Positions 8,017 to 44,722 of a DNA stretch of 64,000 bases are shown in pieces. How positions within the stretch are numbered: position 1 is the stretch's first letter; each line of letters begins with the position of its first letter. Source of the stretch: Bacteroidales bacterium (GTDB lineage: Bacteria; Bacteroidota; Bacteroidia; Bacteroidales; UBA932); NCBI GenBank assembly GCA_031551125.1, contig JAVBOB010000001.1, forward strand, positions 1 through 64,000. The letters are read 5' to 3'. Under the pieces are notes generated by a model. It did no database searches, had not been told where the DNA came from, and saw only the letters and a program-made list of their open reading frames with translations. Position numbers and translations under genes: made by a program.

Positions 8017-9348
8017 TTATAGGTTTTGCAAGTAATCAACTACGCTACTACGCTTCTTTTCTTTAGCAAGATCAAGCGCGTTTTGCCCTTTATCATTTTT
8101 TATACAGGGATCTGCTCCGGCAGCAATCAGCATTTGCACAACTTCTAGGTGTCCTTTTTCTGCCGCCCACTGTATGGCGGTTCCGCCATCGTGGGTTTGC
8201 TCGTTCAACGGACACCCTTTAGCTATAAGCACCTCTACCACGCGGATAAGCCCTGCTTCTGAAGTCATTTGAACAGCCGATTGTTTGTACTTATCTTTTG
8301 CCATTATATCGGCTCCGGCTTCAATCAGCATTAACGATTCCTCTCCTCTGCCCGAGTAGGCGGCCATTATCAACGGAGTAAACTCGTTGTTGTCGGGCGT
8401 GTTGAGGTTAGCGCCTGCTTTAATCAGGGCTTTCAGCGCTTTCTTTTTTCCTAGCCACGCGGCCATAAACAAAGGGGTGCATAACAGCTTATCTCGAACT
8501 TCCATGTCGGCTCCCTTCTCTACCAAAACCGTTATCACATCGGCTTCGTCTCCTTCGGCGGCAAAGTGTAATACGCTTTTCTTTTTTTCGGTGCATACGT
8601 TAACATCGGCTCCGGCAAGGGCAAGTTCGCGCACCAGCTTAAAATTGCCGTTGTCTGCGGCCTTCAGAATATCGCCTTTTACTTGTCCGGTTCTAAAAAT
8701 ATTCCCATTAGCTTTCAACACTTCCGACAATTTATCATAGCTAAGGTTACCACTGTCCTTCAAAACATCGGATGACAGAAGAATGGAGAGTTCTTCAGGT
8801 TTATGGTTAACAGGGAAGTTTACATCGTAGTCATAAGCTACCACCAACGCTTTGGGATGCTGCTTGAAGTTCATGTGAAAGTACAGCTGGTTAATGATAA
8901 TTTTTGCGCTGACTTCACCATCAATTACCAGCTCGCCACCATCATCGCCGTTTGTACCGCAAATGCAATTCTCGATTTCTACATTACCACGCACGTATAT
9001 GTTGGGAGAGCCATGCATGATAAGGTTTTTGGCTTTCAGGTTTCCGGTAACAAAGAGGAACGAACCCAAATCTTCTTCGCGCCAATCAATAAGCCCGTCA
9101 ACCGTAAGATCGCCATCAACTACAAGGTTTGGAGTACAGAACTCGTCATTAAGCCCAATGCTGATACCCGATAGCTCTAGGCTACCCTTGTGAATGAAGG
9201 TTTTCTGTTCAAGGTCTTCATAGCAATCAATAAAGGGGTATCCAACCGATTTGGATATGTTGTATAGCTCTTCCGCTTTTTCAGGTTCTATAAGTTGGGC
9301 AAAGCTTCCACAGCTTTTTCCGGTTAGTATTTTTTCTGCCTTCTTCAT
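8017..9348 (-). CDS. paralog 3: beta-solenoid-like domain fused to C-terminal ankyrin repeats (443 aa)
   Basis: N-terminus carries NLVVDGDLTVDGLIDW...GSFLFVTGNLKAKNLIMHG..IYVRGNVEIENCICGTNGDDGGELVIDG. The C-terminal half has clear ANK repeats (LHFAAEGDEADVITVLVEKGADMEV..., TPLIMAAYSGRGEESLMLIEAGADIMAKD..., TAIQWAAEKGHLEVVQMLIAAGADP). Confidence 0.65.
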   Translation of the reverse strand: MKKAEKILTGKSCGSFAQLIEPEKAEELYNISKSVGYPFIDCYEDLEQKTFIHKGSLELSGISIGLNDEFCTPNLVVDGDLTVDGLIDWREEDLGSFLFVTGNLKAKNLIMHGSPNIYVRGNVEIENCICGTNGDDGGELVIDGEVSAKIIINQLYFHMNFKQHPKALVVAYDYDVNFPVNHKPEELSILLSSDVLKDSGNLSYDKLSEVLKANGNIFRTGQVKGDILKAADNGNFKLVRELALAGADVNVCTEKKKSVLHFAAEGDEADVITVLVEKGADMEVRDKLLCTPLFMAAWLGKKKALKALIKAGANLNTPDNNEFTPLIMAAYSGRGEESLMLIEAGADIMAKDKYKQSAVQMTSEAGLIRVVEVLIAKGCPLNEQTHDGGTAIQWAAEKGHLEVVQMLIAAGADPCIKNDKGQNALDLAKEKKRSSVVDYLQNL

Positions 9349-9483: not shown

Positions 9484-10200
9484 CTAACTTCTGAAAATAG
9501 ATTTTCCTTCCCGTAGTGGTTCATACATGGCTTTACTGTCAACATAGTCGCAGTAGTCGTCCATTTCGTCCAGCTCCTCGGCCTCCTCTTCGCTCACAGG
9601 GTCAACCAGTATATCATGATTTATGAGATGGTAGAAAGCCCTATCGCTCATAAACTCAATATCGTTTTTCACCTTGTTGCTCTTGCCATTGTCAACACGA
9701 TATTCGTTGCCGTAAGCAAGCTTAAAGCTGATAGTCCCTTCTATTTTAAAGAAATGCTCTTCGGGATAAAAGAACCCGGCTGTAGCATTGCCTTTAATAA
9801 TGGCAAAACAATCGTTGTAGTGCCCAATAATTGCACCCTCCACGTCAACATTTCCCTTCACCTCAAGCGTGCCCCCTGTTATAAGATTTTTCGCTTTCAG
9901 ATTTCCTCCCACATAAATGTGGGTTGCCGGCTCATCATCGTAATGTTCCAGCAGGCCGTTAACCGTTAAGCTTCCTGTTACTATTAGGTTGCAAATTTCA
10001 TCACCTAATTCCAAATTGCCGTCGATAACCAAATCGCCAATGCAAACAACGGTATCGCATTCCATATCGTTGCTTTCAGCATAGTTCAGATGCCACTCCA
10101 TAAAATTTTCTTTAAGCTCCGAAGCGCTTAGTGTTTTATGGATTTCGTCCATGCTGATTTCGCCTTTTATCAGGCTGCGGGTATTTTTTAGTGTTGTCAT
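9484..10200 (-). CDS. paralog 4 of the beta-solenoid-like domain family (238 aa)
   Basis: IGDLVIDGNLELGD..NLIVTGSLTVNG...IYVGGNLKAKNLITGGTLEVKGNVDVEGAIIG; acidic C-terminus. Confidence 0.55.
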   Translation of the reverse strand: MTTLKNTRSLIKGEISMDEIHKTLSASELKENFMEWHLNYAESNDMECDTVVCIGDLVIDGNLELGDEICNLIVTGSLTVNGLLEHYDDEPATHIYVGGNLKAKNLITGGTLEVKGNVDVEGAIIGHYNDCFAIIKGNATAGFFYPEEHFFKIEGTISFKLAYGNEYRVDNGKSNKVKNDIEFMSDRAFYHLINHDILVDPVSEEEAEELDEMDDYCDYVDSKAMYEPLREGKSIFRS

Positions 10201-27857: not shown

Positions 27858-30800
27858 TTATGCTTTTCCTCGTTCAACCTCTTGCTTAATTCCATCGAAA
27901 ATAGTGATGGCCTGACTCACAGAGCTAATATTAACCACTGTAAGTGATAGCTTTCCGTTGCTCTCTTTTACCCTAAATAGGCGAGACCGAGACTGTATGT
28001 ACTGTAAAACTTGGGCAAATAAGCTGGTGCGGTAGTATGGTGATAGCTGGTTAGAAATGAAGTAAGCCACCAATACTCCGTTTTTCATTATAATACGTTC
28101 AAATCCAAGCGAAGTGGCGCGTTGACGCAGGCGAACAATATTGAACAGCTCTTCGGCGGCAGGAGGGGGTGTCCCAAATCGGTCAACCAGCTTATTTTGG
28201 AAACGTTGCAGCTCAATATCGCTATCCATTCCATCCAGCTCCTTGTAAAGCCTTATTTTTTCGGCGGTACTGCCAATATACTCATCGGGAAATAGCGCTT
28301 CAAAGTCGGTTTCAATGTAGCAATCCGATACAAAAGAGGCTTTGCTATCCGGTAACATAGGCTGTACCTCCTTCCCTTCTTCCATTGTTTCCAGCAAGGC
28401 TTCTTCATGCAGCTCCTGTAGCGCTTCGTTTAAAATACGCTGGTAGGTTTCAAAGCCAATGTCGGAAATAAACCCGCTTTGCTCGCCGCCAAGTAAGTTC
28501 CCGGCTCCGCGTATGTCCAAATCCTGCATGGCAATGTTGAATCCGCTACCCAAGTCGGAAAATTCTTCGATGGCTTTCAACCTGCGACGTGCCTCATCGG
28601 TCAGCGCAACAGGAGGAGGCGCTAGAAGGTAACAGAATGCTTTGCGGCTAGACCGTCCCACACGACCGCGTAGCTGGTGTAAGTCACTCAGCCCAAAATT
28701 TTGGGCTGCATTAATAATAATGGTGTTGGCGTTTGGAATGTCTAGCCCCGACTCAACTATGGTAGTAGATATAAGTACATCAAAGTCTCCGGCCATAAAG
28801 TCCAGCATAACTTCTTCCAGCTGCTTGGGCTCCATTTGCCCGTGTCCGATGCCTGTTTTTACACCGGGACAGATACGGCGTATAATATCCTCTACCTCTT
28901 TTATATCATGTATCCGGTTATGTATGAAGAATACCTGCCCACCCCTGTTTACTTCATAGGTAATGGCTTCGCGTATAATATTTTCATTAAAGGTATGCAG
29001 CTCCGTAACAATAGGGTGGCGGTTGGGTGGCGGAGTATTAATGATAGACAAATCACGCGCACCCAGTAGCGAGAACTGCAACGTTCGAGGAATAGGTGTT
29101 GCGGTTAGCGTTAGCGTATCAACGTTTAGCCTTAGCTGGCGCAGCTTCTCTTTTGCTCCCACACCAAACTTTTGCTCCTCGTCAACTATCAGCAAGCCAA
29201 GGTCTTTAAACTTTACATCTTTACTTAATACGCGGTGCGTACCAATAAGAATGGTTACTTTCCCTTCCTCAACATCATGCAGAATGGTTTTTATTTCCTT
29301 TGCCGATTTGAGACGGCTGATAAACTCTACCCGTACCGGAAACTCTTTTAAGCGGTCGCCAAACGTTTTGTAGTGCTGGAGCGATAAAATGGTGGTAGGC
29401 ACTAAAACCGCAACCTGTTTATTATCACATGCGGCTTTAAACGCGGCACGTATGGCTACCTCGGTTTTGCCAAAGCCAACATCGCCGCACACCAGCCTGT
29501 CCATAGGGTTGGGCGATTCCATATCTTCCTTTACCGCTATGGTAGCCTTCTCTTGGTCGGGCGTATCTTCGTATATAAACGAAGCCTCCAGCTCGTGCTG
29601 TAAAAAAGTATCGGGAGTAAACGCAAAACCTTCGGTAACCTTGCGCTTGGCGTAAAGGGCAATCAGCTCGCGAGCAATATCCTTTACTTTCTTCTTGGTG
29701 GTTTGCTTCAGCTTTTGCCAAGCGCCTGTACCTAACTTATAAATCTTAGGCGGTTCGCCGTCCTTACTCTTATAGCGTGATATACGGTGCAGCCCCTGAA
29801 TGTTTACAAACAGCACATCATTATCACGGTAGGTAAGCTTAATGGCCTCCTGTACCGTACCGTTGACGGTTGTTTTCACCAACCCCCCGAACACGCCAAC
29901 GCCATGGTCAATGTGTACCACGTAGTCGCCGGTTTGCAGGCTGTTTAGCTCCTGTAGGGTAAGCGCCTCACTTTTATCTAGGTTTCCACGCAGCTTAACG
30001 CGCTGGTAGCGTTGAAATATTTGATGGTCGGTATAGAAGCAACGCTTAATAGCGTTATCAATAAAGCCCTCGTGAAGCGTAAGGTTGTTGTACTCTACCT
30101 GCACATCGCCTGATGCAATGGAGCTGAATATTTGCCGAAGTCGCTCTTGCTGTTGCGTGGTATCCGCTAGAATGACGGTAGTGTAACCTTTGACTTGATT
30201 TTCGCGAATATTGGCCGCCAGCAAGTCGAAGTTTTTGTTGAACGACGGTTGCGGCGCGGTATGAAACTCTATCGTTCTTGCAGGCGTTACGCTCGTATCT
30301 GTTGAGAGTAGAACGGTAGAGAACCGTTTACACAATCCTTCAACATCAGCTTTATCAACTAAGCGGGTTACGCTTTCTTTATCCTGAACGCTTTCAATAG
30401 CTTTACCAACCAGCTGGCAGAACAGGCTGTAATCATCAAACCAGAGCTTGGCCTTCGTTCCTATAAAATCAAAGAACGAGCTGCTGCTTTCGTTTCGGTT
30501 TAAGTCGGCTATAATTTCAACGCTGTCCAGCCGCTCGACGGATAGCTGTGTGCCAATATCAAATGTGCGTATAGAGTCTATTTCATTCCCTAAAAAGTCG
30601 ATACGATAGGGCTTGTTGGTGGAGAACGAGAATATATCTACAATGCTGCCTCGCACAGAGTATTGTCCGGGTTCGTAAACAAAGTCGGTACGTTCAAAGC
30701 CGTACTCCATCATCACCTCACGAACAAAGTCGATGCTCAGCTTCTCACCCTTTTTCAGCTTAAGCGTGTTGCTGTTCAGCGTTTCTTTCGATACCACTTT

Positions 30801-31277
30801 CTCCGCCAGCGCATCGGGATAGCTTACAATAGCCGTAAAATCTTTACTGTGCGCCTGTTTCTCGAGTAGCCCCAACGCTCCTGTACGTTGTACAATTCCT
30901 GACGGGTCTTGCTGTTCGTACTGTATGCTCCTTTTATAGGATGAGGGAAAGAAGACAACCCTATCTGATCCGGTGAGGTTGTAAAGGTCGTCATAGAAGT
31001 AAGCGGCCTCGTCCTTATCGTTGAGGATAAAGATGTGTAGCCCGCCCATGCGCTCAAGGCATGCGGCGGCCAACAGGCTTCGTGATGAGCCCGAAAGCCC
31101 CTTGGCTAGTATGCACAATCGTCCCGCGGAAGAGAGTTCGGCAAGTAGCTGCTTACACCCATCCTGGGAGGCAAACTGTTCGGTTATTGTCTTCACAAAC
31201 AGAGATAAAAAATGAGGCGTAAAGGTAGTAAATAAAGTGAATGGGGGGGTGGTGAATTGGGGGTGGGCTATTCTCAT
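27858..31277 (-). CDS. mfd: transcription-repair coupling factor Mfd
   Basis: About 1100-aa superfamily-2 helicase with DEEQKFGV (DExH) and TATPIPRTL / QLRGRVGR motifs and the TRCF domain architecture. The N-terminal ~35 codons of the track ORF may be over-extension. Confidence 0.85.
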   Translation of the reverse strand: MRIAHPQFTTPPFTLFTTFTPHFLSLFVKTITEQFASQDGCKQLLAELSSAGRLCILAKGLSGSSRSLLAAACLERMGGLHIFILNDKDEAAYFYDDLYNLTGSDRVVFFPSSYKRSIQYEQQDPSGIVQRTGALGLLEKQAHSKDFTAIVSYPDALAEKVVSKETLNSNTLKLKKGEKLSIDFVREVMMEYGFERTDFVYEPGQYSVRGSIVDIFSFSTNKPYRIDFLGNEIDSIRTFDIGTQLSVERLDSVEIIADLNRNESSSSFFDFIGTKAKLWFDDYSLFCQLVGKAIESVQDKESVTRLVDKADVEGLCKRFSTVLLSTDTSVTPARTIEFHTAPQPSFNKNFDLLAANIRENQVKGYTTVILADTTQQQERLRQIFSSIASGDVQVEYNNLTLHEGFIDNAIKRCFYTDHQIFQRYQRVKLRGNLDKSEALTLQELNSLQTGDYVVHIDHGVGVFGGLVKTTVNGTVQEAIKLTYRDNDVLFVNIQGLHRISRYKSKDGEPPKIYKLGTGAWQKLKQTTKKKVKDIARELIALYAKRKVTEGFAFTPDTFLQHELEASFIYEDTPDQEKATIAVKEDMESPNPMDRLVCGDVGFGKTEVAIRAAFKAACDNKQVAVLVPTTILSLQHYKTFGDRLKEFPVRVEFISRLKSAKEIKTILHDVEEGKVTILIGTHRVLSKDVKFKDLGLLIVDEEQKFGVGAKEKLRQLRLNVDTLTLTATPIPRTLQFSLLGARDLSIINTPPPNRHPIVTELHTFNENIIREAITYEVNRGGQVFFIHNRIHDIKEVEDIIRRICPGVKTGIGHGQMEPKQLEEVMLDFMAGDFDVLISTTIVESGLDIPNANTIIINAAQNFGLSDLHQLRGRVGRSSRKAFCYLLAPPPVALTDEARRRLKAIEEFSDLGSGFNIAMQDLDIRGAGNLLGGEQSGFISDIGFETYQRILNEALQELHEEALLETMEEGKEVQPMLPDSKASFVSDCYIETDFEALFPDEYIGSTAEKIRLYKELDGMDSDIELQRFQNKLVDRFGTPPPAAEELFNIVRLRQRATSLGFERIIMKNGVLVAYFISNQLSPYYRTSLFAQVLQYIQSRSRLFRVKESNGKLSLTVVNISSVSQAITIFDGIKQEVERGKA

Positions 31278-31463
31278 GAGGGATACGGTTTAGAGAGGTA
31301 TGAGATTATTGGGCAAGTGATAAATTTAAGCAATAAAGTTGTAAATAATTAATTTTTTAAATGAATATATTTGACATATTAGAAATAATTATGATATAGC
31401 TATATTTACAAATTACGTTGTAAAAGTCGCTACTTGCAAATAATTTTGATTATCAGCAAATTA

Positions 31464-32636
31464 ATGAAAAATAGAATTTTTCCCATCGAAATCACCGAAT
31501 TTTCTGTTGAAGCCCTACTTCGCAAGTACAGCAAGAGAAGTTATGTGATTTATATCGTTGTATTGCTTTTTGTACTATTTGCATTTGCTGCATTATTCTT
31601 TATCACAGTAGATGTGAGTGTGAGAGCAAGCGGCATACTAAAAACACCCGGAGAGCGGATCGCTGTGACTGCTCCCGCATCAGGTCGTATTTATCAGTTA
31701 AGAATAACAGAAAACGATGTGGTTAGTAAGGGTGATACGTTATTTGTGGTTTCACAGGATGTATGGAAAGAGCAAGCAAAAAATTACCAAGTTCGTAAAG
31801 ACGAATTAGTAAACTTGCTTTCTGACTTAAACCAGCTAACAGCATCGAATAAAAGAAAGCAAATAGCGTTCAAAACGGATTATTACCAGCAAAGCTTTGC
31901 GCTATATTCCGGTCGCCAAGCTAGTGCTCAAAGTCGCTTAGAAGTTGTTGAGAAAAATTATACCCGTCATAAACTTTTGCTTAAGGATAAGGTGATTGCT
32001 CAGGCTACGTTTGAACCCGTTGAGGGGGAATATAATGAAGCCAAATCCGCAATCTCAACGTTGTACAATGAGCAAATGAACCAGTGGCAGAGCGACCAGC
32101 AACAATATCAGCTGGAGCTACAAAATTTGGAATCGCAAATTAACCAGCTGGATATACAGCAGCAACAACTAATTGTACTGGCTCCGGTGTCGGGAAGCAT
32201 TCAGCAGCTGGCCGGTGTAAGGCAAGGAAACTATGTAACAGAAGGGCAGCAGCTGGTTGAAATTTCTCCCGACAGTACGTTGCAAGTAGAGTGTTACGTT
32301 AGCCCCAAAGATATTGGACTTATCCGTACAGGACAAGTTGTTCGCATACAGGCGGATGCATATAACTATAACGAATGGGGAATGTTGGACGGTTGTGTGA
32401 CGGGTATTTCACATGATATTACCATTCAGAATTCTCAGCAACAGCCTTTTTTCAAGGTATTTTGTCGATTGGAGAAAACGCATCTTACGCTGAAGAATGG
32501 TTTTACGGGGCAGCTGAAAAAAGGAATGACTGCCAATATTCGCTTTGTAGTTACTCGTCGTACACTATTCCAAATGCTATATGACAAGACCGATGATTGG
32601 TTAAATCCCAACAGCCCGAAGGAAATATCAAATTAG
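31464..32636 (+). CDS. HlyD-family membrane-fusion/secretion adaptor protein
   Basis: Single N-terminal TM YVIYIVVLLFVLFAFAALFFITV, a long coiled-coil and a C-terminal beta domain. It is immediately upstream of the C39-ABC exporter. Confidence 0.75.
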   Translation: MKNRIFPIEITEFSVEALLRKYSKRSYVIYIVVLLFVLFAFAALFFITVDVSVRASGILKTPGERIAVTAPASGRIYQLRITENDVVSKGDTLFVVSQDVWKEQAKNYQVRKDELVNLLSDLNQLTASNKRKQIAFKTDYYQQSFALYSGRQASAQSRLEVVEKNYTRHKLLLKDKVIAQATFEPVEGEYNEAKSAISTLYNEQMNQWQSDQQQYQLELQNLESQINQLDIQQQQLIVLAPVSGSIQQLAGVRQGNYVTEGQQLVEISPDSTLQVECYVSPKDIGLIRTGQVVRIQADAYNYNEWGMLDGCVTGISHDITIQNSQQQPFFKVFCRLEKTHLTLKNGFTGQLKKGMTANIRFVVTRRTLFQMLYDKTDDWLNPNSPKEISN

Positions 32637-32659: not shown

Positions 32660-34825
32660 ATGAAAGTAAAGCAGCATGATATTACCGATTGCGGTGCAGC
32701 GTGTTTGGCATCTATAGCGGGACATTACGGTTTGAAAATGCCTATAGCTCGTATCCGCCAAATTGCATCTACCGACCAAAAAGGGACTAATATATTGGGG
32801 CTTATTGAAGCCGCCCAGCAGTTAGGCTTTGCGGCAAAGGGGGTAAAGACGTCGATTGTTAATGGAGAAAAGGATACTACGCCTCTTGAGAAAATTCCAA
32901 AACCGGCAATAGCGCATGTTGTGGTTAAAGATGTGCTGCACCACTTTGTCGTTATTTACAAAGCCGATGGAAAACAGGTAACAGTTATGGATCCGGCCGA
33001 CGGAAAAATGCATTGTTACAGCTACGACACGTTTTGCCACATGTGGACGGGAATGCTAATCTTGCTGGTTCCGCAGGACGATTTTAAAACAGGGAATGAA
33101 AAAGTCAGCATATCCAAGCGATTTTGGTACTTACTTCGTCCGCATGGAGGGGAGTTGGTACAAGCCATCTTCGGAGCCATTGTTTTTACGGTTTTAGGCT
33201 TGGCAACTTCTGTTTTTGTACAGAAAATAGTAGATAACGTTATTCCTGAAGGCAACGGGAGGTTGCTGAACTTGCTCAGCGTGGTGATGATTGTTATTTT
33301 ATTTCTATCCGTATTCATCAGCTACTTTAAAACGTTGTTTGTTATTCGTATCGGTCAGAAAATTGATGCACGCTTGATATTGGGCTACTACAAACACCTG
33401 CTGCGTTTGCCCCAAAGTTTTTTTGATAACATGCGTACAGGAGAAATTATTTCACGTATCAACGATGCGGTGAAGATCCGTGTATTTATTAACGATACAA
33501 TGATTAACCTGCTGGTGTCGTTGTTTATGCTGGTATTTGCTTTTGTGCTGATGTTTACGTACTACTGGAAGTTGGCGTTAATTTTACTCGCTATTATACC
33601 GCTTTACGCGATGATATATGTTTTGTTTAACTATGCCAACCGCCGTACTCAGCGTAAGCTGATGGAGCATTCTGCTGATTTGGAAGCACAGCTGGTAGAG
33701 TCAATCAATACGGCAGGTACGATTAAGCGCTTTGGTATGGAGAGTTTTGCCGGAATGAAAACCGAAACCCGTTTTGTGCGATTGCTAACAACTATTTATA
33801 CTTCCGGAAAAACTGCCTTGTGGGCAAGTTCAGCTACAGATTTTATTTCGCGCTTATTCGTGATTATTCTACTTTGGTGTGGCACCTATTTTGTGTTGCG
33901 CAACCAAATTACTCCCGGAGAGCTGCTTTCGTTTTACGCGTTGATAGGCTATTTTACCGGACCTATCGCTAGTCTCATTGGAATGAACCGCAGCTTACAG
34001 GATGCAAGAATTGCGGCAGACCGCCTATTTGAAATAATGGATTTGGAACGTGAGGATGAGCAAAAGAAAATACCGTTTAGCAAAGAACAAGTTGGCGACA
34101 TTGTATTTGAAAACGTAAGTTTTCGTTACGGAAGCCGCACTACCGTTTTTCAAAATCTGAACTTACAGCTTTCTAAAGGAAAAATAAGTGCGGTAGTAGG
34201 AGAAAGCGGTTCGGGAAAAACCACCTTGCTTTCAATTCTTCAAAACCTATACCCCTTACAGGGCGGGAGTGTTACTATAGGCGGCGTGGATGTTCGGCAT
34301 ATTGACAGTAGCAGCTTACGCCAGCTGGTGAGTGTTGTTCCGCAGCAGATTGATTTGTTTGAGGGTTCGTTGATTGATAATATTGCGCTGGGCGATTTCT
34401 CCGTTGATTACCAACAGGTATTATCTATTTGTGGAGCCATTGGCCTGTTACCTTTTATTCAATCCTTACCCCAAGGTTTTCATACCAACATTGGCGAGAA
34501 CGGAGTGAAGCTGTCCGGCGGACAGCGCCAGCGTATTGCTATTGCGCGGGCGCTGTACCGTAAGCCCGAAATACTGATTTTAGATGAAGCTACTTCGGCA
34601 TTAGATTCCGAGTCGGAGCAAAATATTAAAGCATCAATAGACCAACTGCGGAGCGAGGGAAAAACCATTATTGTAATTGCTCACCGCTTGGGAACCGTAA
34701 CGGGAGCCGATTGTATTTACATGCTCCACCAAGGCAGCTTGGAGGCCAAAGGTACACATGAGGAGCTGCTGGCAGGCAACGAGCGCTATGCCAGGTATTG
34801 GAAAGCGCAAACACAACTAGCTTAA
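32660..34825 (+). CDS. peptidase C39 domain-containing ABC transporter (bacteriocin/peptide exporter)
   Basis: N-terminal C39 motif QHDITDCGAACLASIAGHYG; 6-TM domain; Walker A GESGSGKTTL; signature LSGGQRQRIAIARAL; Walker B ILILDEATSALD. Confidence 0.9.
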   Translation: MKVKQHDITDCGAACLASIAGHYGLKMPIARIRQIASTDQKGTNILGLIEAAQQLGFAAKGVKTSIVNGEKDTTPLEKIPKPAIAHVVVKDVLHHFVVIYKADGKQVTVMDPADGKMHCYSYDTFCHMWTGMLILLVPQDDFKTGNEKVSISKRFWYLLRPHGGELVQAIFGAIVFTVLGLATSVFVQKIVDNVIPEGNGRLLNLLSVVMIVILFLSVFISYFKTLFVIRIGQKIDARLILGYYKHLLRLPQSFFDNMRTGEIISRINDAVKIRVFINDTMINLLVSLFMLVFAFVLMFTYYWKLALILLAIIPLYAMIYVLFNYANRRTQRKLMEHSADLEAQLVESINTAGTIKRFGMESFAGMKTETRFVRLLTTIYTSGKTALWASSATDFISRLFVIILLWCGTYFVLRNQITPGELLSFYALIGYFTGPIASLIGMNRSLQDARIAADRLFEIMDLEREDEQKKIPFSKEQVGDIVFENVSFRYGSRTTVFQNLNLQLSKGKISAVVGESGSGKTTLLSILQNLYPLQGGSVTIGGVDVRHIDSSSLRQLVSVVPQQIDLFEGSLIDNIALGDFSVDYQQVLSICGAIGLLPFIQSLPQGFHTNIGENGVKLSGGQRQRIAIARALYRKPEILILDEATSALDSESEQNIKASIDQLRSEGKTIIVIAHRLGTVTGADCIYMLHQGSLEAKGTHEELLAGNERYARYWKAQTQLA

Positions 34826-34850: not shown

Positions 34851-35168
34851 ATGAAATCATTAGTAACCTTAGCCAAGCTAAGAATTTTAGAGAAGCTGAT
34901 TCATTCCGAGAGTACCGGTACTTCCGAACAGCTGGCGCAGCGGCTGCATATAAGCCGCAGTAAGCTGTTTGAACTGATTGATGAGCTGAAGCTGAAGGGT
35001 GTTCCCATTTCTTACTCTAAAAAGAAAAAGAGCTTTGTGTTTGACCGCCCGCTGGAGTTGTTACTGAAAGCCGAAGTAACCTTTTTGGACAACGAAGAGG
35101 TGATTGACATTAGCGGAGGACAAGCATTACAAAATATGCTTTGCAGCATAAATTTGTGTAGTGCTTAG
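34851..35168 (+). CDS. small putative HTH DNA-binding protein (105 aa)
   Basis: LRILEKLIHSESTGTSEQLAQRLHISRSKLFELIDELK resembles a winged-HTH; it sits between the exporter and the leader-peptide genes. Confidence 0.4.
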   Translation: MKSLVTLAKLRILEKLIHSESTGTSEQLAQRLHISRSKLFELIDELKLKGVPISYSKKKKSFVFDRPLELLLKAEVTFLDNEEVIDISGGQALQNMLCSINLCSA

Positions 35169-35315
35169 TAGCGTTCTTTTTTGTGGACTAACTCCGAATA
35201 GTTTTGTACCTGTCTTTGCAAAGAACAGGCTAATCCTGCGGCATGTAAAAGTGAGCAGGTATGTTTAATTCAAAAACTTACAATGATGAGGAGCTTAGAT
35301 TTAAATGCTCATGGA

Positions 35316-35474
35316 ATGACTGAACTGAATGAGCAGGAAATAAAGGATGCTAATGGTGGAGGTTGGTTTTGGCCAGCTGTGCTATTTCAGGTAGCGATGG
35401 AACTTTTCGATGGGTCTTTTTTTAGTGATATTGAAAAAGGAAGAAAAGAGGCAAGAGAGGTTCTCGGAAAATAA
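35316..35474 (+). CDS. double-glycine leader peptide precursor 1 (bacteriocin-like)
   Basis: Leader MTELNEQEIKDANGG|G, then core WFWPAVLFQVAMELFDGSFFSDIEKGRKEAREVLGK. An alternative upstream ATG lies at 35283. Confidence 0.65.
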   Translation: MTELNEQEIKDANGGGWFWPAVLFQVAMELFDGSFFSDIEKGRKEAREVLGK

Positions 35475-35503
35475 AATGATATTAATCCTTAAATAATTAT
35501 AGT

Positions 35504-35695
35504 ATGCAACTTGAAAAATATGGTGTTATTGAATTAACACAACAAGAACAATTATTGGAAAATGGAGGCGGTCCGATAGGTCGTATAGTTGGTTGGTTTT
35601 TGGGCTTCCTTGAAGTGGTGGGCGAAGTTCATCAAGAGGTGTCGAAATCTCCAGAAGCAGCAGCTGTTTATCAGGCTTGGAATGATTTTAGATAG
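35504..35695 (+). CDS. double-glycine leader peptide precursor 2 (bacteriocin-like)
   Basis: MQLEKYGVIELTQQEQLLENGG|G, then core PIGRIVGWFLGFLEVVGEVHQEVSKSPEAAAVYQAWNDFR. It is followed by the hairpin ACTGCATTTG...CAAATGCAGT (35713..35753). Confidence 0.65.
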   Translation: MQLEKYGVIELTQQEQLLENGGGPIGRIVGWFLGFLEVVGEVHQEVSKSPEAAAVYQAWNDFR

Positions 35696-35773
35696 TTGTA
35701 TAAATACTGCATTTGTGTAAATTGAGTAAATTTGCGCAAATGCAGTTTATCCCATTTATGTAAATAACTTTTT

Positions 35774-36115
35774 ATGCTTAAAAGTCTATCCTCTCGAATA
35801 TACTTTGGCTTATTCGTTATTTTTTTTTCCATTTTTCTTTTGGTCAATTATTGTGGTCATTGGCAAGTTAGTTCAGTTATTTCTTGTTTTTACCCCATTA
35901 ATCTTTGTTTTTTATTATGGTCGATAAATGATTGTTCAAGAAGGGCAAAGGTATATATTACTATTGCTGTTTTGTTGCTAGGATTACTGCTTTGGACTAA
36001 TACGAAAGTTGCTGGTTACCCATTGATCATTCCATTTATTTCTGCGTTTATTGCATTGGCGATAAGTTATATTGTTGATAGGAGGTGTAGAGGTAGGTGT
36101 AATTCTAAAAATTAG
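35774..36115 (+). CDS. small membrane protein (113 aa), N-terminus resembling the neighbouring CPBP genes
   Basis: LKSLSSRIYFGLFVIFFSIFLL parallels LHRLKTKYLFTIGVFFPILLGL of the CPBP gene 36122..36619; there are no protease motifs. Either an immunity-like peptide or a gene fragment. Confidence 0.4.
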   Translation: MLKSLSSRIYFGLFVIFFSIFLLVNYCGHWQVSSVISCFYPINLCFLLWSINDCSRRAKVYITIAVLLLGLLLWTNTKVAGYPLIIPFISAFIALAISYIVDRRCRGRCNSKN

Positions 36116-36121
36116 TATTTT

Positions 36122-36619
36122 GTGTTTCGAGTTTTACAGTTGTTGCATAGGCTTAAGACCAAGTACCTATTTACAATAGGTGTATTTTTCCCTATACTTT
36201 TGGGGCTTATGGTGGTTTTTATTGCTCAACTTTTTCCTGATATTTATAACGATGAAGAGGATGTTACGCAAAAAATCTTACAGAATCCTCTTAATTTATT
36301 AAGTGCATTGATATTGGCTCCCGCTATTGAAACGTTAATTCAGTATGTGCCGGTAAAAATATCAGACTATTACTTATCAAGGAGGTGTAAATTTGCGAAC
36401 TTTATAGCAATTGTTCTATCTGCAATTGTGTTTGCATCTTTGCATAACCAACATTTTATTTTTCTTATACCGCTATTTTTTGCGGGCTTAACGTGGGCTA
36501 CTTTATGTTTGGTTTTTATTCAACAAAAAATTAATCCATATTTGTCTATTGCATTGATGCATTTTGGCTATAATTTGATTATTCTATCGCTTGATATTGC
36601 GATATATGGATATGCATAG
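36122..36619 (+). CDS. CPBP-family (Abi/CAAX protease-like) membrane protein; putative bacteriocin self-immunity
   Basis: Motifs APAIETLIQY (EExxxR-like), FASLHNQH (FxxxH) and HFGYNLI (HxxxN). Confidence 0.6.
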   Translation: MFRVLQLLHRLKTKYLFTIGVFFPILLGLMVVFIAQLFPDIYNDEEDVTQKILQNPLNLLSALILAPAIETLIQYVPVKISDYYLSRRCKFANFIAIVLSAIVFASLHNQHFIFLIPLFFAGLTWATLCLVFIQQKINPYLSIALMHFGYNLIILSLDIAIYGYA

Positions 36620-36630
36620 CCATTACATGA

Positions 36631-36843
36631 AATGAAGCGCTTTGGAAATATTGCTATAGTTGGATTGTCTTATTTGGTATGCTTCTGTATAGTGCGTTGT
36701 ATGTAGGCTACGCATTTATAGGGGGAGTTCTTCTTGCGTTGACATTTTTAGGTTGTTTTAAAAAGAGGGGATATACTTATGCATATTTTTTAGTTTGCAT
36801 TGTTCATAGTTTGTTTAATATAAGTGTTCACTACCTCTCGTAA
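36631..36843 (+). pseudogene. C-terminal remnant of a CPBP-family gene
   Basis: Stop-to-stop frame translates ...YVGYAFIGGVLLALTFLGCFKKRGYTYAYFLVCIVHSLFNISVHYLS* and carries the HxxxN-type motif. It is too short to be intact, and no upstream part lies in frame. Confidence 0.45.
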
Positions 36844-36871
36844 ATTGATTATATGATTTGATCTTGATTCT

Positions 36872-37340
36872 ATGCAAGCGCTGGTTAATACATTAAAACA
36901 GCGGTCATCGCTGTTTATATTTTTGCTGGTATTCGGTATCAAACTTTTGTTGTGTGTTGTTTGGCATTTTTGCTTTAGGCACGCAGGGGGGAACGGATAT
37001 GTCGGAGTTCTCACCTATTGCAGAGTTTATACTTGTTGTTGTTATTGCTCCTCTTGTTGAAACATTTTTAGTGCAATACCTACCCATAGCAATACTTATT
37101 AAGTACACTAAAGCGCCTTCGCTTCTTATAATTATTATATCGGCTGCTTGTTTTTCCCTGTTGCACACCTATAGTTTAGCGTATGTAACCTATACATTTC
37201 TATCAGGATTGATGCTTGCATTTGCATTTGTGGTTTTCTATATTAAGAAAAATAGTTTTTTATTTGCATTCCTTATGGTATGTTTAGTTCATGCGGTATT
37301 TAATGCCGGATTATTTTCGCTTAAGTATTGTAGTCAATAA
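36872..37340 (+). pseudogene. frameshifted CPBP-family gene (two overlapping ORFs in different frames)
   Basis: ORF 36872..37060 encodes an N-terminus MQALVNTLKQRSSLFIFLLVFGIKLL homologous to the N-terminus of 36122..36619. ORF 36954..37340, in another frame, carries APLVETFLVQYLP, FSLLHTYS and HAVFNAGL (the three CPBP motifs). Confidence 0.5.
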
Positions 37341-38234
37341 CTTCGAAGTTTTTATGTTTTGTAATTATGGAACAGGATTTAAAAAAAATGAACAAGCGGA
37401 TTGAGGCTAATCCTCTCCGTTTGATATTTGTTGCGTTGGTATTGGTATATGCTTTGGGTGAAGTTGCCCATGGTTTTGGAGAAGCGATAGCTGAAGTTAT
37501 TAAGCCTTGAGCAGTTGTAATGGCTATAAATGTAAATTGATAAAAATATGAATATGGAAGAGTTGGAACGAAAATATAATAGGCTGAAGCGGGAAAACCG
37601 GATATTGATTTTGTTTATTGTAATTTGTATAGGTATTATGCTCTATAACCATTATGCATAGCTGTTGTACCAAAACAGCATATTTTGGGATTCTTCTTTT
37701 TGTGAAAACGAGAAACAGGTGGTTGCAAAGAACGCTACAAGCTGGGTTGCCGTCATTGTTATTGTGTTACTTTTGGTATTCGCAAAAGCAATTTTTGACG
37801 TAGGTTTTTCCAATGAAAAGGTTAAGCGTGAGTGTTTGCGAGAGGGAAATTTCTGCATAAAGCAACCTATCCCGAGCAAGCGGCGGGGTTGCATTCCGCC
37901 GAAGGATAGGCTAGCCCATGAAAAACCGTATAGCGTAAGCCCGTCTTGATTTTTTGGTTCTTTTGCCCACAACGTATTTATTTGGTAGTGTTCGCGAGGG
38001 CTTCGCCGTTGCATCAAGGCAAAAGAATGAAGGAATAAAACCACAAGTTAAAGAAGTATAGGTAGTAAGAATTTCAAATGATTTCCAATTATCTATCAGT
38101 AAATCAAATATTTAAAAATGTGAATTCCGCTAAAATTTCACTTGCGTTCAAAATAACCCGTTTGCCATTTCAGATTCAAAAAAAAGTTTTACCTTTGCCG
38201 TTCATTTAAAACAAACTAAAATTTTTGCTTTCAC

Positions 38235-38507
38235 ATGGAGTATCTTTCATTAGAAAAGAAGCAAGAAATTTTCAAGGAGTACGGAAAGTCTAATACTGAT
38301 ACCGGCTCTCCCGAGAGTCAGGTAGCGCTATTTTCATACCGTATCAACCACCTTACTGAACACCTTAAAATGCACAAAAAGGACTACGGTACCGAACGTG
38401 CGTTGCTAAGGCTGGTAGGTAAGCGCCGCAGGTTACTGGATTACCTGAAGCATGTTGATATTGAACGGTATAGGGCGATAGTAAAGGCTCTGAACCTTAG
38501 AAAATAA
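38235..38507 (+). CDS. rpsO: 30S ribosomal protein S15
   Basis: The 90-aa sequence [69 protein letters not shown] is a canonical S15. Confidence 0.95.
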
Positions 38508-41089: not shown

Positions 41090-44000
41090 CTAGCTTATTC
41101 CCACATGTGCCAGCAGCTTCTCTGCTTCACTCATGCTAATACCTTTTCTGTGGGCATAGTCTGCAATTTGGTCGGAGGCAATGTTGCCAACGCTAAAGTA
41201 GTGTGCATGCGGACTGGCAAAGTATAGTCCGCAAACCGATGCAGCAGGCGACATAGCGTAACTTTCCGTAAGCTGAATACCTAAGCTTTGCTCAGCATTA
41301 AGTAGGCTGAATAGCGTTTGCTTCTCGCTATGCTCAGGGCATACAGGAAATCCTATTGCCGGACGAATACCTTTTACTCCCTCAGGGAACTGCCACAGCT
41401 CTAAACGTACTTTTTCATTCAACAGCTCTGCAAAGGCTTCTGCCAAGCGGTCGGCAAGCGTTTTGGTAAGAAGGCTTCTATACTCGTCGTTTTGTGCGTT
41501 GAAACGTTCTACTACCTCATCAACGCCTATGCCTGCTGTAGTAGCAAATAGTCCGATATAATCTTGTCTGCCCGATGTTGCAGGTGCTATATAATCGGCC
41601 AAACAACGATTTTCACCGTTCTCCGGTTTACGCTCCTGATTGCGCAGCATGTGTAAAACAGCAAGTTCTTTATCCCGCTTCTCATCAGTGTAAGCTATAA
41701 TGTCCTCGTTGTGTGAAGAGGCGGGAAGAATAGCAATCGCTCCGTTAACCGTTAACGATTTTTCCTTTGCAAAAGTCTTTAATAGCGCATGCGCATCGTT
41801 GAACAGACTTTGAGCCTCACTACCCATTTGCGTATGCTGTAAAATATCGGGATACCTTCCGTTAAGCCTCCAGGTGTGGAAAAAGGCTGTCCAATTTATA
41901 TATGGCGTAAGTTCCTCAATGGGGAAGGATAGGAGTTGCTGTATTCCAATATTTTTAGGCTTTGCAATAGGTTCTGTTGCCCAATCAATGGTAAGTTTAT
42001 TTTTTCTTGCTTCTTCCAACGACAATAGCATTCGTTCTTCCTGTTGCTTTTCGTAGTTCTTCTTCAGCTGAGCATACTCTTCATTCAGCTTGCGGAGATA
42101 ATCCTCACGTAAATTTTCGTTTAGTAAACTTTTGGCAATTGAAGCCACCTGTGAAGCATCCCTCACATGTACAACACCTCCGCTATACTTGGGTTGAATG
42201 GCAATGGCCGTATGTAGCGCTCCGGTAGCCGCACCGCCTACTACCAGCGGAATGCGAAGTCCGTTCTTTTCCAGCTCTTCGGCAACATGCGCCATCTCAT
42301 CCAGTGATGGAGTGATAAGCCCACTGAGACCAATAAGGTCAACCTTTTCAGCAATGGCTGTATCGATAATCTTTTGAGCGGAAACCATTACGCCAAGATC
42401 GATAATTTGGTAGCCGTTGCAGCTGAGTACCACGCTTACAATGTTTTTACCAATATCGTGGACATCGCCTTTTACTGTTGCCAGTAAAATTTTTGCTACC
42501 GTTTTACTTTGCTTGTTAGCTTCTCTCTCTTGTTGTATCAACGGTTCAAGAACAGAAACGGCACGCTTCATTACTCGCGCGCTTTTTACCACTTGAGGAA
42601 GAAACATTTTTCCTTCACCAAAAAGTGTTCCAACCTCATTCATTCCATCCATTAACGGACCTTCAATAATACCGATGGGAGAGGAGTAGGACGACAGCAG
42701 CTCCGTTACATCTTGCTCTACGTAGTCGGCAATACCTTTTACCATAGCGTAGCGTATGCGGTCGGCAGGTGCTTGCTTTCGCCAGCTCTCTTCGCGTTTT
42801 TCGTCGCCTTCCGTTTTCGTTTCCTTATTCTCAGCAGCGTAGGCTATCAGCTTATCGGCGGCATCGCTACTACGATTCAGCACTACATCTTCTACCAGCT
42901 TCAGTAAAGTTGGTTCAATATCACTATATACAGATAGCTGACCCGGATTGACTATTCCCATATCCATGCCTGCTTTTATAGCATGGTACAGAAACACGGA
43001 GTGCATAGCGCGGCGAACCGTTTCGTTTCCACGATAGGAGAAGGACAAGTTACTCACACCTCCGCTGATTTTAGCGTACGGCAGGTTTTGTTTTATCCAC
43101 TCACAGGCACAAATAAAAGCAACAGCATACTCGTTATGCTCTTCCATACCCGTTGATATGGCAAGAATATTGGGGTCTATAATGATATCTTGCGGGGGGA
43201 AGTTCGCCTTATCAACAAGTAAATGGTACGAACGTCCGGCTACTTCCACTTTACGCTCGTAGGTATCTGCCTGTCCTTGCTCATCAAATAGCATTACAAC
43301 AACGGCAGCGCCAAACTTGCGAATATATTGTGCTTTTGCTAAAAAAGCCTCCTCACCTTCTTTCAGGCTTATAGAGTTTACTATGGACTTACCTTGCGTA
43401 CACTTTAGGCCTGCTTGAATAACCTCCCATTTAGAGGAGTCTATCATTACGGGTAGTGCAGCAACATCAGGTTCCGAAGCCATCATTTGCAGGAAGGTTG
43501 CCATGGCAACAGGCGCGTCAATCAGCGCCTCGTCCATACACACGTCTATAAGTTGAGCCCCGTCTTGTACCTGTTCACGGGCAACAGATAGCGCCTCTTC
43601 GTACTTTTGTTCTTTTATAAGACGGGCAAACTTTTTTGAGCCTGCCACATTAGTACGTTCGCCAACGTTTACAAAGTTACTTTGCGGTGTAATTTTTACT
43701 ACGTTGAGCCCGCAGCAAGTGGTAATGGGTTCTAACGCCGGGATTTTTCTTGGCGGATATTTTGCCGCTACCTCTGCAATGCGGGCAATATGGTCGGGTG
43801 TTGTACCGCAACATCCGCCAACAATATTCAGCTGTCCGGCTTTAAGCATTTGCCCTACGTAGGCAGCTGTAATTTCGGGCGACTCGGTGTAGTGTCCCAT
43901 TTGGTCGGGATAACCGGCATTGGGGTATGCGCAAATGCGGAAGCGAGAGTAGCTTGACAGCTCGGCAATGTGCATTGCCATTTGCTTTGCACCAAGACCA

Positions 44001-44722
44001 CAGTTCAGCCCTATGCTCAGTAAATCGATATGCTCTAATGAGGTGTAGAAGGCCTCAAGCGTTTGTCCTGATAGCGTACGTCCGCTGATATCACTTAACG
44101 TTCCCGATACCATTACGGGAACTTTTCGCCCACCTTTTTCTATAAAATCCTGAATGGCTACAAGAGCGGCTTTCACGTTGAGCGTATCAAATGATGTTTC
44201 TATAAGTAGTATATCTACGCCGCCGTCAACAAGTCCGCGCACCTGTTCCGTATAAGCATTGTACAGCTCATCAAACGTAATGTTTCGGTATGCCGGATTA
44301 TTGATATCCGGCGAAACAGATAGCGATTTTGATGTTGGACCGATAGAACCTGCTACGAATCTTGGTTTACCGGGAGTGCTATACCTATCAACCAGCTTGC
44401 GTACCAGCTTGGCGGCTTCAACGTTCAGCTCGTAAGCAATATCAGCCAGCCCATATTCAGCCAGCGACACGGCATTTGCATTGAGCGTATTGGTCTCAAT
44501 AATATCGGCTCCGGCTTTTAGGTAAGCCTCGTGTAAAGTGCGTATAATATCAGGACGGCTTAATACCAGTAGGTCGTTGTTGCCTTTAAGGTCGGTTGGA
44601 TGGTTGCGAAACCTTTCTCCGCGATAATCTTCTTCGCCGAGCTTATAGGGTTGTATCATAGTGCCCATACCGCCATCGAGTATCAGAATACGTTCGGCTA
44701 GGGTTTGTTCTAGAATATTCAC
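41090..44722 (-). CDS. metH: cobalamin-dependent methionine synthase
   Basis: 1210 aa with Hcy-binding, pterin-binding, B12-binding ([10 protein letters not shown]; [10 protein letters not shown]) and AdoMet-activation domains in canonical order. Confidence 0.92.

Follow-up and report, generated by a model that had tools for sequence, protein, structure and literature searches.

Two dissimilar double-glycine leader peptides encoded in tandem beside a peptidase-containing exporter in a Bacteroidales bacterium

Introduction

Thousands of class II candidates have been reported in Bacteroidota, by the account given in PMC12648112, and PMC12219008 describes microcin-like peptides as abundant in Bacteroidaceae. 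Here we analyze a locus from a Bacteroidales bacterium that encodes two adjacent peptides with double-glycine (GG) leaders, pep1 and pep2. It lies in a stretch of 64,000 nucleotides (positions 1 to 64,000 of contig JAVBOB010000001.1, assembly GCA_031551125.1, forward strand), the whole of which is called the window below. The peptide genes stand in a row with those for a HlyD-family adaptor, a peptidase-containing ABC exporter (PCAT), a small helix-turn-helix (HTH) protein and CPBP-family membrane proteins. pep1 and pep2 are new sequences within a familiar kind of bacterial weapon. They are probably exported as bacteriocin-type peptides, with the CPBP proteins providing immunity.

The bacteroidetocins (proposed class IIf; Coyne et al., 2019, PMC6671954) share with this locus a Bacteroidales host, a GG leader, a C39 exporter and a small unmodified peptide. 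Their leaders are 15-16 residues long, and each has two or more Cys, with four in bacteroidetocins A and B. Their loci encode a thiol oxidoreductase and a protein with five transmembrane (TM) segments, and no immunity gene has been identified in them (PMC6671954). In contrast, pep1 and pep2 have leaders of 22-26 residues and no Cys, and their locus has no oxidoreductase and includes HlyD, HTH and CPBP genes. The locus falls outside class IIf.

The class II microcins (MccV with CvaAB and TolC) are, like pep1 and pep2, unmodified peptides of less than 10 kDa with a GG leader. In the descriptions taken from PMC12219008 and PMC10352776, the PCAT and membrane-fusion genes are linked, the outer-membrane channel is encoded elsewhere and a membrane immunity protein is adjacent. 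The gene architecture of the window is that of a class II microcin locus; no NCBIfam microcin family matched it. Its leaders are longer than those of the microcins (22-26 residues) and follow a Bacteroidota-specific consensus, and its immunity candidates are CPBP proteins, whereas microcins have small dedicated immunity proteins. A published microcin pipeline missed the bacteroidetocins, which its authors attribute to divergent GG signal sequences (PMC12219008).

The class IIb bacteriocins of Firmicutes (plantaricin EF/JK, lactococcin G) have two dissimilar adjacent GG-leader genes in one operon, the arrangement also found here. As is predicted for the window, a C39-ABC transporter and an accessory protein serve processing and export, and CAAX/Abi membrane proteins adjoin the peptides in both. 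GxxxG-type motifs occur in both groups, though in the window the full GxxxG form is confined to pep2. There is no sequence similarity between the two groups: the lactococcin G-alpha family gives 15.1 bits, with a cut-off of 37. The window's host is Gram-negative, unlike Firmicutes, so an outer-membrane step is needed.

The closest counterparts are GG peptides encoded beside PCAT and HlyD genes in other Bacteroidota. They resemble pep1 and pep2 in the leader consensus MKxLxLxxYGVxELxxxEMxxxxGG, in the exporter family (58-70% identity) and in the gene order of HlyD, exporter, HTH protein with a GG motif, peptides and CPBP. Their cores, of about 37 residues, also have a hydrophobic or aromatic N-terminus and a polar acidic C-terminus, are mostly free of Cys and carry a net charge of zero or below. 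The window differs in its cores, which show no significant similarity to those of the relatives: pep1 is weakly like one type of core and pep2 is an orphan. We found no experimentally characterized member among these relatives.

Results

The two pre-peptides

pep1 (35283-35474) and pep2 (35504-35695) are open reading frames (ORFs) on the + strand, 29 nt apart, each encoding a pre-peptide of 63 residues. In pep1, the leader comprises residues 1-26 (nt 35283-35360; MMRSLDLNAHGMTELNEQEIKDANGG) and the core the remaining 37 (nt 35361-35471; GWFWPAVLFQVAMELFDGSFFSDIEKGRKEAREVLGK). In pep2, residues 1-22 form the leader (nt 35504-35569; MQLEKYGVIELTQQEQLLENGG) and the core has 41 residues (nt 35570-35692; GPIGRIVGWFLGFLEVVGEVHQEVSKSPEAAAVYQAWNDFR). 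A first-pass annotation of the DNA had described two dissimilar GG-leader genes in tandem here. We recovered both ORFs at the same coordinates and with identical translations, and the similarity between the two peptides is not significant (phmmer E = 0.27), in agreement with that description. ORFs, leader homology, the catalytic residues of the exporter, gene order, the lack of modification genes and the properties of the peptides are direct observations.

We fetched 80 loci with relatives of the adjacent exporter and gathered the small ORFs from them. Together with the window's own contig in the Logan assemblies (L001), they make a set of 81 loci. Many small ORFs on the exporter's strand share a conserved leader with the consensus MKTLNLENYGVQELSSSEMKEINGG. 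Its profile found 111 matches in 57 of the 81 loci, all but one (110) on the exporter's strand; at a relaxed cut-off there were 148 matches on that strand and 3 on the opposite one. G25 and G26 are invariant in the alignment of 66 leader sequences.

For scoring, we used a leader hidden Markov model (HMM) made from small ORFs beside homologous exporters in other genomes, with the window peptides excluded. The scores were 21.1 bits for pep1 and 20.0 bits for pep2. None of 2,000 shuffles of each peptide reached them (maxima 8.8 and 6.4, respectively). The 64-kb window has 1,411 stop-to-stop frames with 25 codons or more, and pep1 and pep2 alone among them match (E ~4e-5); the next best frame has E = 5.3. 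By this measure both are genuine double-glycine-leader pre-peptides, as the first-pass annotation had it. That annotation also held such genes to be routinely missed. Both peptides are present in the protein collection that we searched (sources NCBI and Logan), so both genes had already been called.

A canonical leader has hydrophobic residues at -4, -7, -12 and -15 and an acidic one near -8. The pep1 leader follows this pattern, with A, I, L and M at the four hydrophobic positions and E at -8, whereas that of pep2 departs from it at two of the four, -4 and -7. In register, the pep1 leader is near-identical to MRTLDLNAYGVYEMNDVEMRDADGG of loci in Prevotellaceae metagenome-assembled genomes (MAGs). 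The register of the leader family suggests the second ATG (35286) as the true start of pep1. Both peptides have GGG at the cleavage junction. For pep2, the GGG and non-canonical residues at -4 and -7 make the mature N-terminus ambiguous by one residue, either GPIG... or PIG....

The pep1 core has a net charge of -1 and a monoisotopic mass of 4289.18 Da. Its residues 1-16 are hydrophobic and its C-terminal half is charged and amphipathic (hydrophobic moment, muH, up to 0.63). The pep2 core has a net charge of -2 and a mass of 4557.32 Da (4500.30 Da with cleavage behind the third G); its residues 1-17 are hydrophobic and its C-terminal half is polar. Two tandem GxxxG motifs are present in pep2 (GRIVG and GWFLG), whereas pep1 has only small-xxx-small motifs, GSFFS (GxxxS) and GRKEA (GxxxA). 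An AlphaFold 2 (AF2) model of pep1, of low confidence (mean predicted local distance difference test, pLDDT, 62), has a leader helix, a break at the GG and a helix-hinge-helix core.

Neither core contains Cys, and no modification enzyme (radical SAM, LanB/C/M, YcaO and others) is encoded between mfd and rpsO, the housekeeping genes on either side. On these two grounds we regard the peptides as unmodified, and they are not placed among the RiPPs, peptides made on the ribosome and modified after translation. The first-pass annotation, which called them Cys-free, unmodified and disulfide-free class II-type peptides, was right in this category of unmodified GG-leader bacteriocin-type peptides. It overstated the novelty of the genes as unannotated, and also the membrane activity. 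The cores are anionic (-1 and -2), unlike the classical cationic class II bacteriocins. The amphipathic character that it assigned holds for the C-terminal halves only; their N-terminal counterparts are just hydrophobic.

In length, charge and lack of Cys, the two cores are typical of the Bacteroidota GG-peptide family. The 106 cores from related loci have a median length of 37 and a median charge of -1 (66 negative, 24 neutral and 16 positive), and 64 of them lack Cys. Their sequences are hypervariable between loci. A profile built from 66 family members matched 299 further proteins. Some relatives bear names such as 'lactobin A/cerein 7B family class IIb bacteriocin', 'bacteriocin' or 'natural product precursor', so this kind of peptide is already recognized.

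Family searches with the two peptides gave little. Neither matched Pfam, and pep2 did not match TIGR03949. NCBIfam returned sub-threshold leader matches for pep1, to the lactococcin G-alpha family mentioned above and to TIGR03949 (11.9 bits, cut-off 21.5; E 0.15); neither peptide reached a cut-off for family membership. A profile of the 'DWxNFKAG' type fitted marginally, with p ~0.009 for pep1 and p ~0.002 for pep2, for a family chosen post hoc.

Several assignments of the cores to subfamilies of related peptides were rejected. Tested for membership in the 'N[IL]F.Y..G' type, pep2 scored -0.6 bits and 898 of 2,000 shuffles did as well. It was not significantly like the '[SC][LF]AYDIG' type (p ~0.045) or the partner peptide of locus L089 (p ~0.11). 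Neither core belonged significantly to the '...GYNDAT' subfamily.

The exporter and the immunity candidates

The HlyD-family membrane-fusion (adaptor) protein has 400 residues (31434-32636, + strand; Pfam HlyD_3 2.2e-20, HlyD_D23 1.3e-14). It matches NCBIfam type_I_hlyD with 4.6e-46, under the curated cut-off. In related loci a HlyD gene also precedes the exporter. The exporter itself, a PCAT of 721 residues (32660-34825, + strand), was identified with Pfam (Peptidase_C39 2e-31, ABC_membrane 1.2e-53, ABC_tran 1.4e-29) and NCBIfam (TIGR01193 bacteriocin_ABC, 4e-155, 518.2 bits, slightly short of the cut-off of 523.85). An alternative TTG start at 32597 would overlap the HlyD gene. The N-terminal domain aligns with PCAT1 (4RY2; E 1.9e-40) and keeps the Cys (TDCGAACL), His (HFVVIY) and Asp (DP) residues, and the C39 domain is predicted to be catalytically competent. 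The exporter gene ends 458 nt 5' of pep1. Its closest relatives are from MAGs of uncultured Bacteroidales and Prevotellaceae, with a best match of 70% identity in a collection of species representatives that lacks the window's genome.

Downstream of the peptides lie genes for CPBP/Rce1-like membrane proteins. CPBP-1 (165 residues, 36122-36619, + strand) matches the Rce1-like family of Pfam with 6e-4; its 20.5 bits are slightly under the PF02517 cut-off of 22.4. It is a clear paralogue of CPBP-2 (E 2e-8), and its length fits the CPBP proteins of 163-174 residues in L002 and L003, whose Pfam scores are above the cut-off. Its homologues stand directly 3' of GG peptides in L003, L073, L042 and L033.

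CPBP-2 (36872-37340, + strand) matches the same Pfam family more strongly (2.9e-8, 34.3 bits against the cut-off of 22.4) and is apparently frameshifted. The frame that starts at the ATG at 36872 supplies the N-terminal 35 codons, out of frame with the ORF 36954-37340 that supplies the rest. The shift falls within ~36,900-36,985, where there are homopolymers of T and G, and the sequence is the same in three assemblies. Once the frame is repaired, residues 1-147 align end to end with residues 1-154 of a 164-residue CPBP protein of L002 (E 9e-25). The truncated CPBP-2 retains all three conserved motifs. Between CPBP-1 and CPBP-2, a stretch of 54 codons (36679-36843, + strand) is the C-terminal remnant of a third CPBP gene and carries the HxxxN motif. 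It is 50% identical to the C-terminus of an L002 CPBP protein (E 9e-12; phmmer against CPBP-2, 1e-10) and is evidence of cassette turnover.

Homologues of the window's CPBP proteins occur immediately after GG peptides in at least 14 loci, and short CPBP/Rce1-like genes directly follow GG peptides in L002 (twice), L003, L008 and L009. Abi/CAAX proteins have been linked to self-immunity against bacteriocins (Kjos et al., 2010, cited through PMC8692603). The CPBP/Rce1-like proteins here are candidates for immunity.

Pairs and single peptides in related loci

The nearest loci, from Bacteroidales and Prevotellaceae MAGs with exporters 60-70% identical to that of the window, have the order HlyD, exporter, HTH protein, one or two GG peptides and a hydrophobic protein. 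The last has 163-228 residues and is Rce1-like in L002 (both modules), L003, L008 and L009. L003 has two peptides followed by one CPBP gene. L083, which has the closest homologue of the HTH protein (56% identity), has two dissimilar GG peptides downstream of it.

Core similarity to pep1 was detectable only in peptides of the WFWP...DWxNFKAG type, and four loci with such peptides were examined (L086, L087, L092 and L089). All four have a dissimilar GG peptide 17-35 nt downstream, and in three the partner is of the conserved [SC][LF]AYDIG type (L086 5001-5390, L087 853-1255, L092 174-566). Further 3' of the pairs there is a CPBP gene in L086 (161 residues, past several small ORFs) and L087 (176 residues). 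The pair in L089 is followed by a small TM protein, and the L092 contig (986 nt) ends past the partner gene. A second kind of pair, of a [FW]W..IVGA... and a N[IL]F.Y..G... peptide, is found in L023 (334-759), L025 (6027-6387) and L083 (6460-6855). The loci that share these conserved pairs are otherwise unrelated. At the relaxed leader cut-off, adjacent peptides form 38 pairs, 5 triples and 1 quadruple, besides 53 singles. The excess of pairs over triples suggests that pairs are a favored unit, with singles still common.

Locus L086 is also rearranged. Two N-terminally truncated copies of the gene for the HTH protein with the GG motif and a transposase of the IS1595 family lie among its string of GG-peptide genes (6167-6391, 8520-9251 and 9620-9838). 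This is consistent with shuffling of cassettes made of HTH, peptide and immunity genes.

A small HTH protein with a leader-like motif

The gene between the exporter and pep1 (34851-35168, + strand) encodes a winged-HTH protein of 105 residues (Pfam HTH_11 7.5e-6). Its C-terminus reads ...VTFLDNEEVIDISGG|QALQNMLCSINLCSA, with a GG at residues 89-90 (nt 35115-35120) and a tail of 15 residues after it (nt 35121-35165). Relative to this GG, the protein has V(-15), L(-12), E(-8), V(-7) and I(-4), the positions that are used by the peptide leaders. In an AF2 model the winged HTH, residues 3-64, has pLDDT >90, and the chain is disordered from about residue 80. The nearest folds to the model are the DNA-binding domains of BirA, NiaR and DtxR.

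The motif recurs in the family. In a full HMMER search, 715 clusters reached E <=1e-3, nearly all of 90-130 residues. When the best 150 of the 715 were aligned, 130 reached the G89-G90 site, which was GG in 100 of them and AG in 16. The tails past this site are variable, rich in Phe and Tyr and 10-35 residues long. A leader profile made from peptides only scored at least 8 bits on the C-termini of 12 of 149 family members, all ending on GG, versus none of the shuffled or reversed controls.

HTH proteins with the GG were seen across L002-L081, L083, L084 and L086. In related loci 24 of 32 HTH genes begin -31 to +198 nt from the end of the exporter gene, and most have a GG-peptide gene within ~190 nt downstream. 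The HTH gene precedes the peptides even where the exporter sits elsewhere. We found no description of such a fusion of regulator and leader in the literature searched, in Pfam or in NCBIfam, and the names that source databases give to this family were of no use.

We tentatively propose that the HTH protein is a ligand or substrate of the C39 peptidase of the exporter, which would couple expression of the cassette to the state of the exporter; the leader-like residues suggest this, though at somewhat less than even odds. Two routes can be envisaged. The exporter might cleave the regulator and export its tail as a signal. Alternatively, the regulator might be sequestered by an idle exporter, as MalT is by MalK or Mlc by PtsG.

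Expression signals and genomic setting

A stem-loop (35706-35746, + strand) starts 11 nt past the pep2 stop codon. Its 18-nt arms (35706-35723 and 35729-35746) are 89% complementary and enclose a loop of 5 nt. The 86-nt RNA 35690-35775 folds with -27.2 kcal/mol (z = -6.6), and none of 200 shuffles was as stable. An Rfam search with the hairpin returned only a sub-threshold chance match. About 375 nt of AT-rich sequence separate the hairpin from the first CPBP gene. The hairpin is a possible terminator, attenuator or mRNA stabilizer, and could separate expression of the peptides from that of the immunity genes.

On the 5' side, TAGTTTTG (35199-35206, + strand) matches the Bacteroidetes -7 motif TAnnTTTG, 77 nt 5' of pep1. 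The motif is not enriched across the window (79 found, 66 expected), so this site is only a candidate promoter. Sites of the sigma-70 type occur at chance level (11 found, 10.8 expected). An imperfect palindrome, CCTGTCTTTGCAAAGAACAGG (35209-35229), lies just 3' of TAGTTTTG and could serve the HTH protein as an operator. The 5' region of pep1 has no significant RNA structure (z = -0.47).

The adaptor, exporter, HTH, pep1 and pep2 genes, the hairpin and the CPBP genes form one co-directional block on the + strand. It is flanked by coaX-mfd on the - strand (mfd, 27858-31277) and rpsO-pnp on the + strand (rpsO, 38235-38507); a further housekeeping gene, metH, lies at 41090-44722. The GC content is 47-50% in the flanks including mfd and pnp, 41-44% in the transporter genes and ~33% in 35,000-37,600. 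With so low a GC content, the part that holds the peptide and immunity genes has the look of a cassette that is foreign or evolves fast. The 15-nt direct repeats at 31312 and 38520 were considered as flanks of an island and rejected; they overlap the rpsO terminator hairpin and are probably due to chance. Two Logan assemblies (SRR23967709 and SRR23967707) are 100% identical to the window.

Three further ORFs lie in the AT-rich segment. Two on the + strand encode tiny single-helix membrane proteins of 40-47 residues (37367/37388-37510) and 37 residues (37548-37661). Both are gene calls in the Logan assemblies; they have no family match and no GG leader, and their membership in the cassette is uncertain. 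The third, a hydrophobic ORF of 113 codons (35774-36115), lies between pep2 and CPBP-1, in the frame of CPBP-1 and one stop codon apart from it. It was rejected as the N-terminus of CPBP-1, which at 165 residues is already full length compared to homologues of 163-174 residues. It has no homologue in related loci and no entry in the protein collection. Most likely it is not a gene; the alternative is an extra membrane protein.

Discussion

We favor the reading in which pep1 and pep2 are exported bacteriocin peptides with CPBP immunity that work as one two-peptide unit, and assign it a probability of roughly 0.45, over one in which they are two independent toxins. In the proposed mechanism, the exporter's C39 peptidase domain would bind the 22-26-residue leaders of the ribosomally made pre-peptides and cut after Gly-Gly, which would release the 37- and 41-residue cores. 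The route of the cores out of the cell would lead from the ABC exporter by way of the HlyD adaptor to an outer-membrane channel whose gene lies outside the locus. These steps are modeled on what is established for PCAT systems (Havarstein et al., 1995; structures of PCAT1; CvaAB/TolC as a precedent, summarized in PMC10352776). Outside the cell, the family context suggests that the cores act as a bacteriocin on related Bacteroidales, most likely jointly as the halves of one unit. The hydrophobic N-terminal helix of each core would enter the target membrane or a membrane protein, and the polar C-terminal helix would follow. The CPBP/Rce1-like proteins would protect the producer, again by family context, and the small HTH protein upstream may control the cassette. 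We infer cleavage, export, toxicity, synergy, immunity and regulation in this scheme.

The organization of the locus argues for a joint unit. Neither an immunity gene nor a terminator lies between pep1 and pep2, and the strong hairpin stands only after pep2. In all four loci examined the pep1-like peptides had a partner, pairs are over-represented relative to triples, and in L003 two peptides precede one CPBP gene. These points also stand against the next reading, which we consider less likely. It takes pep1 and pep2 as two single-peptide bacteriocins, class IId-like or class II microcin-like, that share the exporter, have a CPBP protein each and came to stand in tandem by cassette accretion. 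Single peptides are the commonest arrangement in related loci, with 25 loci with one peptide versus 20 with two, and 53 of the 97 clusters versus 38 pairs. L002, the nearest locus, consists of modules in which a HTH gene, a single peptide gene and a CPBP gene stand together. Two CPBP genes and a remnant are present in the window, where two-peptide loci usually have just one immunity gene; such a content would suit two separate pairs of toxin and immunity protein no less well. The two peptides are unrelated and their leaders are different sub-variants: that of pep2 keeps E(-8), L(-12) and V(-15) and has L at -5/-6, with the non-canonical E(-4) and Q(-7). pep2 shows no significant likeness to the conserved partner types.

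Other observations also weigh against a two-peptide bacteriocin. The cores are anionic, not cationic like the mature peptides of class IIb, and there are two or three CPBP genes, unlike in class IIb of Firmicutes. No gene for an outer-membrane channel is present in the locus. The likeness of pep1 to the WFWP...E..(S/T)DW(D/K)NFKAG type is weak (E 0.0017 in 120 sequences). Searches of 5.8 billion proteins returned only its own entry for each peptide. RpsO, MetH and Mfd of this genome are themselves singletons at 90% identity in a collection of 15 billion proteins, so the orphan status of the peptides partly reflects an unsampled lineage. The frameshift in CPBP-2 suggests that the cassette may be partly decayed.

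A role as exported signals of the pheromone kind, or another non-toxic extracellular or envelope function, with the HTH protein in a sensing circuit, is improbable. GG-leader exports include quorum-sensing pheromones besides bacteriocins (PMC7018657, PMC7595303). A regulator gene lies immediately 5' of the peptides, and anionic cores are unusual for pore-forming peptides. However, the locus contains no histidine kinase or response regulator, and immunity-type CPBP genes are tightly linked to the peptides in many loci. The cores, 37-41 residues with a long hydrophobic stretch, are longer than the GG pheromones known so far. Their hypervariability between loci is expected of arms-race toxins, not of receptor-matched signals. 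Least probable is a horizontally acquired cassette that is decaying or silent, its ORFs intact and the system no longer functional or expressed: CPBP-2 aligns in full only after frameshift repair, there is a remnant of a further CPBP gene, GC is 33% in the cassette versus 47-50% in the flanks and the pep2 leader deviates at -4 and -7, but the peptide, HTH, HlyD and exporter ORFs are intact, the catalytic residues are kept, CPBP-1 is full length compared to its homologues and even the truncated CPBP-2 retains its three conserved motifs.

The basic classification of the finding is ordinary, and neither the paired peptides nor the regulator changes it. Two sequence-orphan cores are added to a large and almost wholly uncharacterized set of bacteriocin-like peptides with GG leaders in Bacteroidota. 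The locus is compact and complete, with adaptor, exporter, regulator, two peptides and immunity candidates, which makes it easy to clone and test. Two-peptide bacteriocins have so far been a Gram-positive concept, and Bacteroidota are Gram-negative. Conserved dissimilar pairs followed by CPBP genes in many Bacteroidota loci suggest that two-peptide bacteriocins are widespread in this phylum. The GG motif of the HTH regulator, if functional, would be a new way to couple gene regulation to an ABC exporter.

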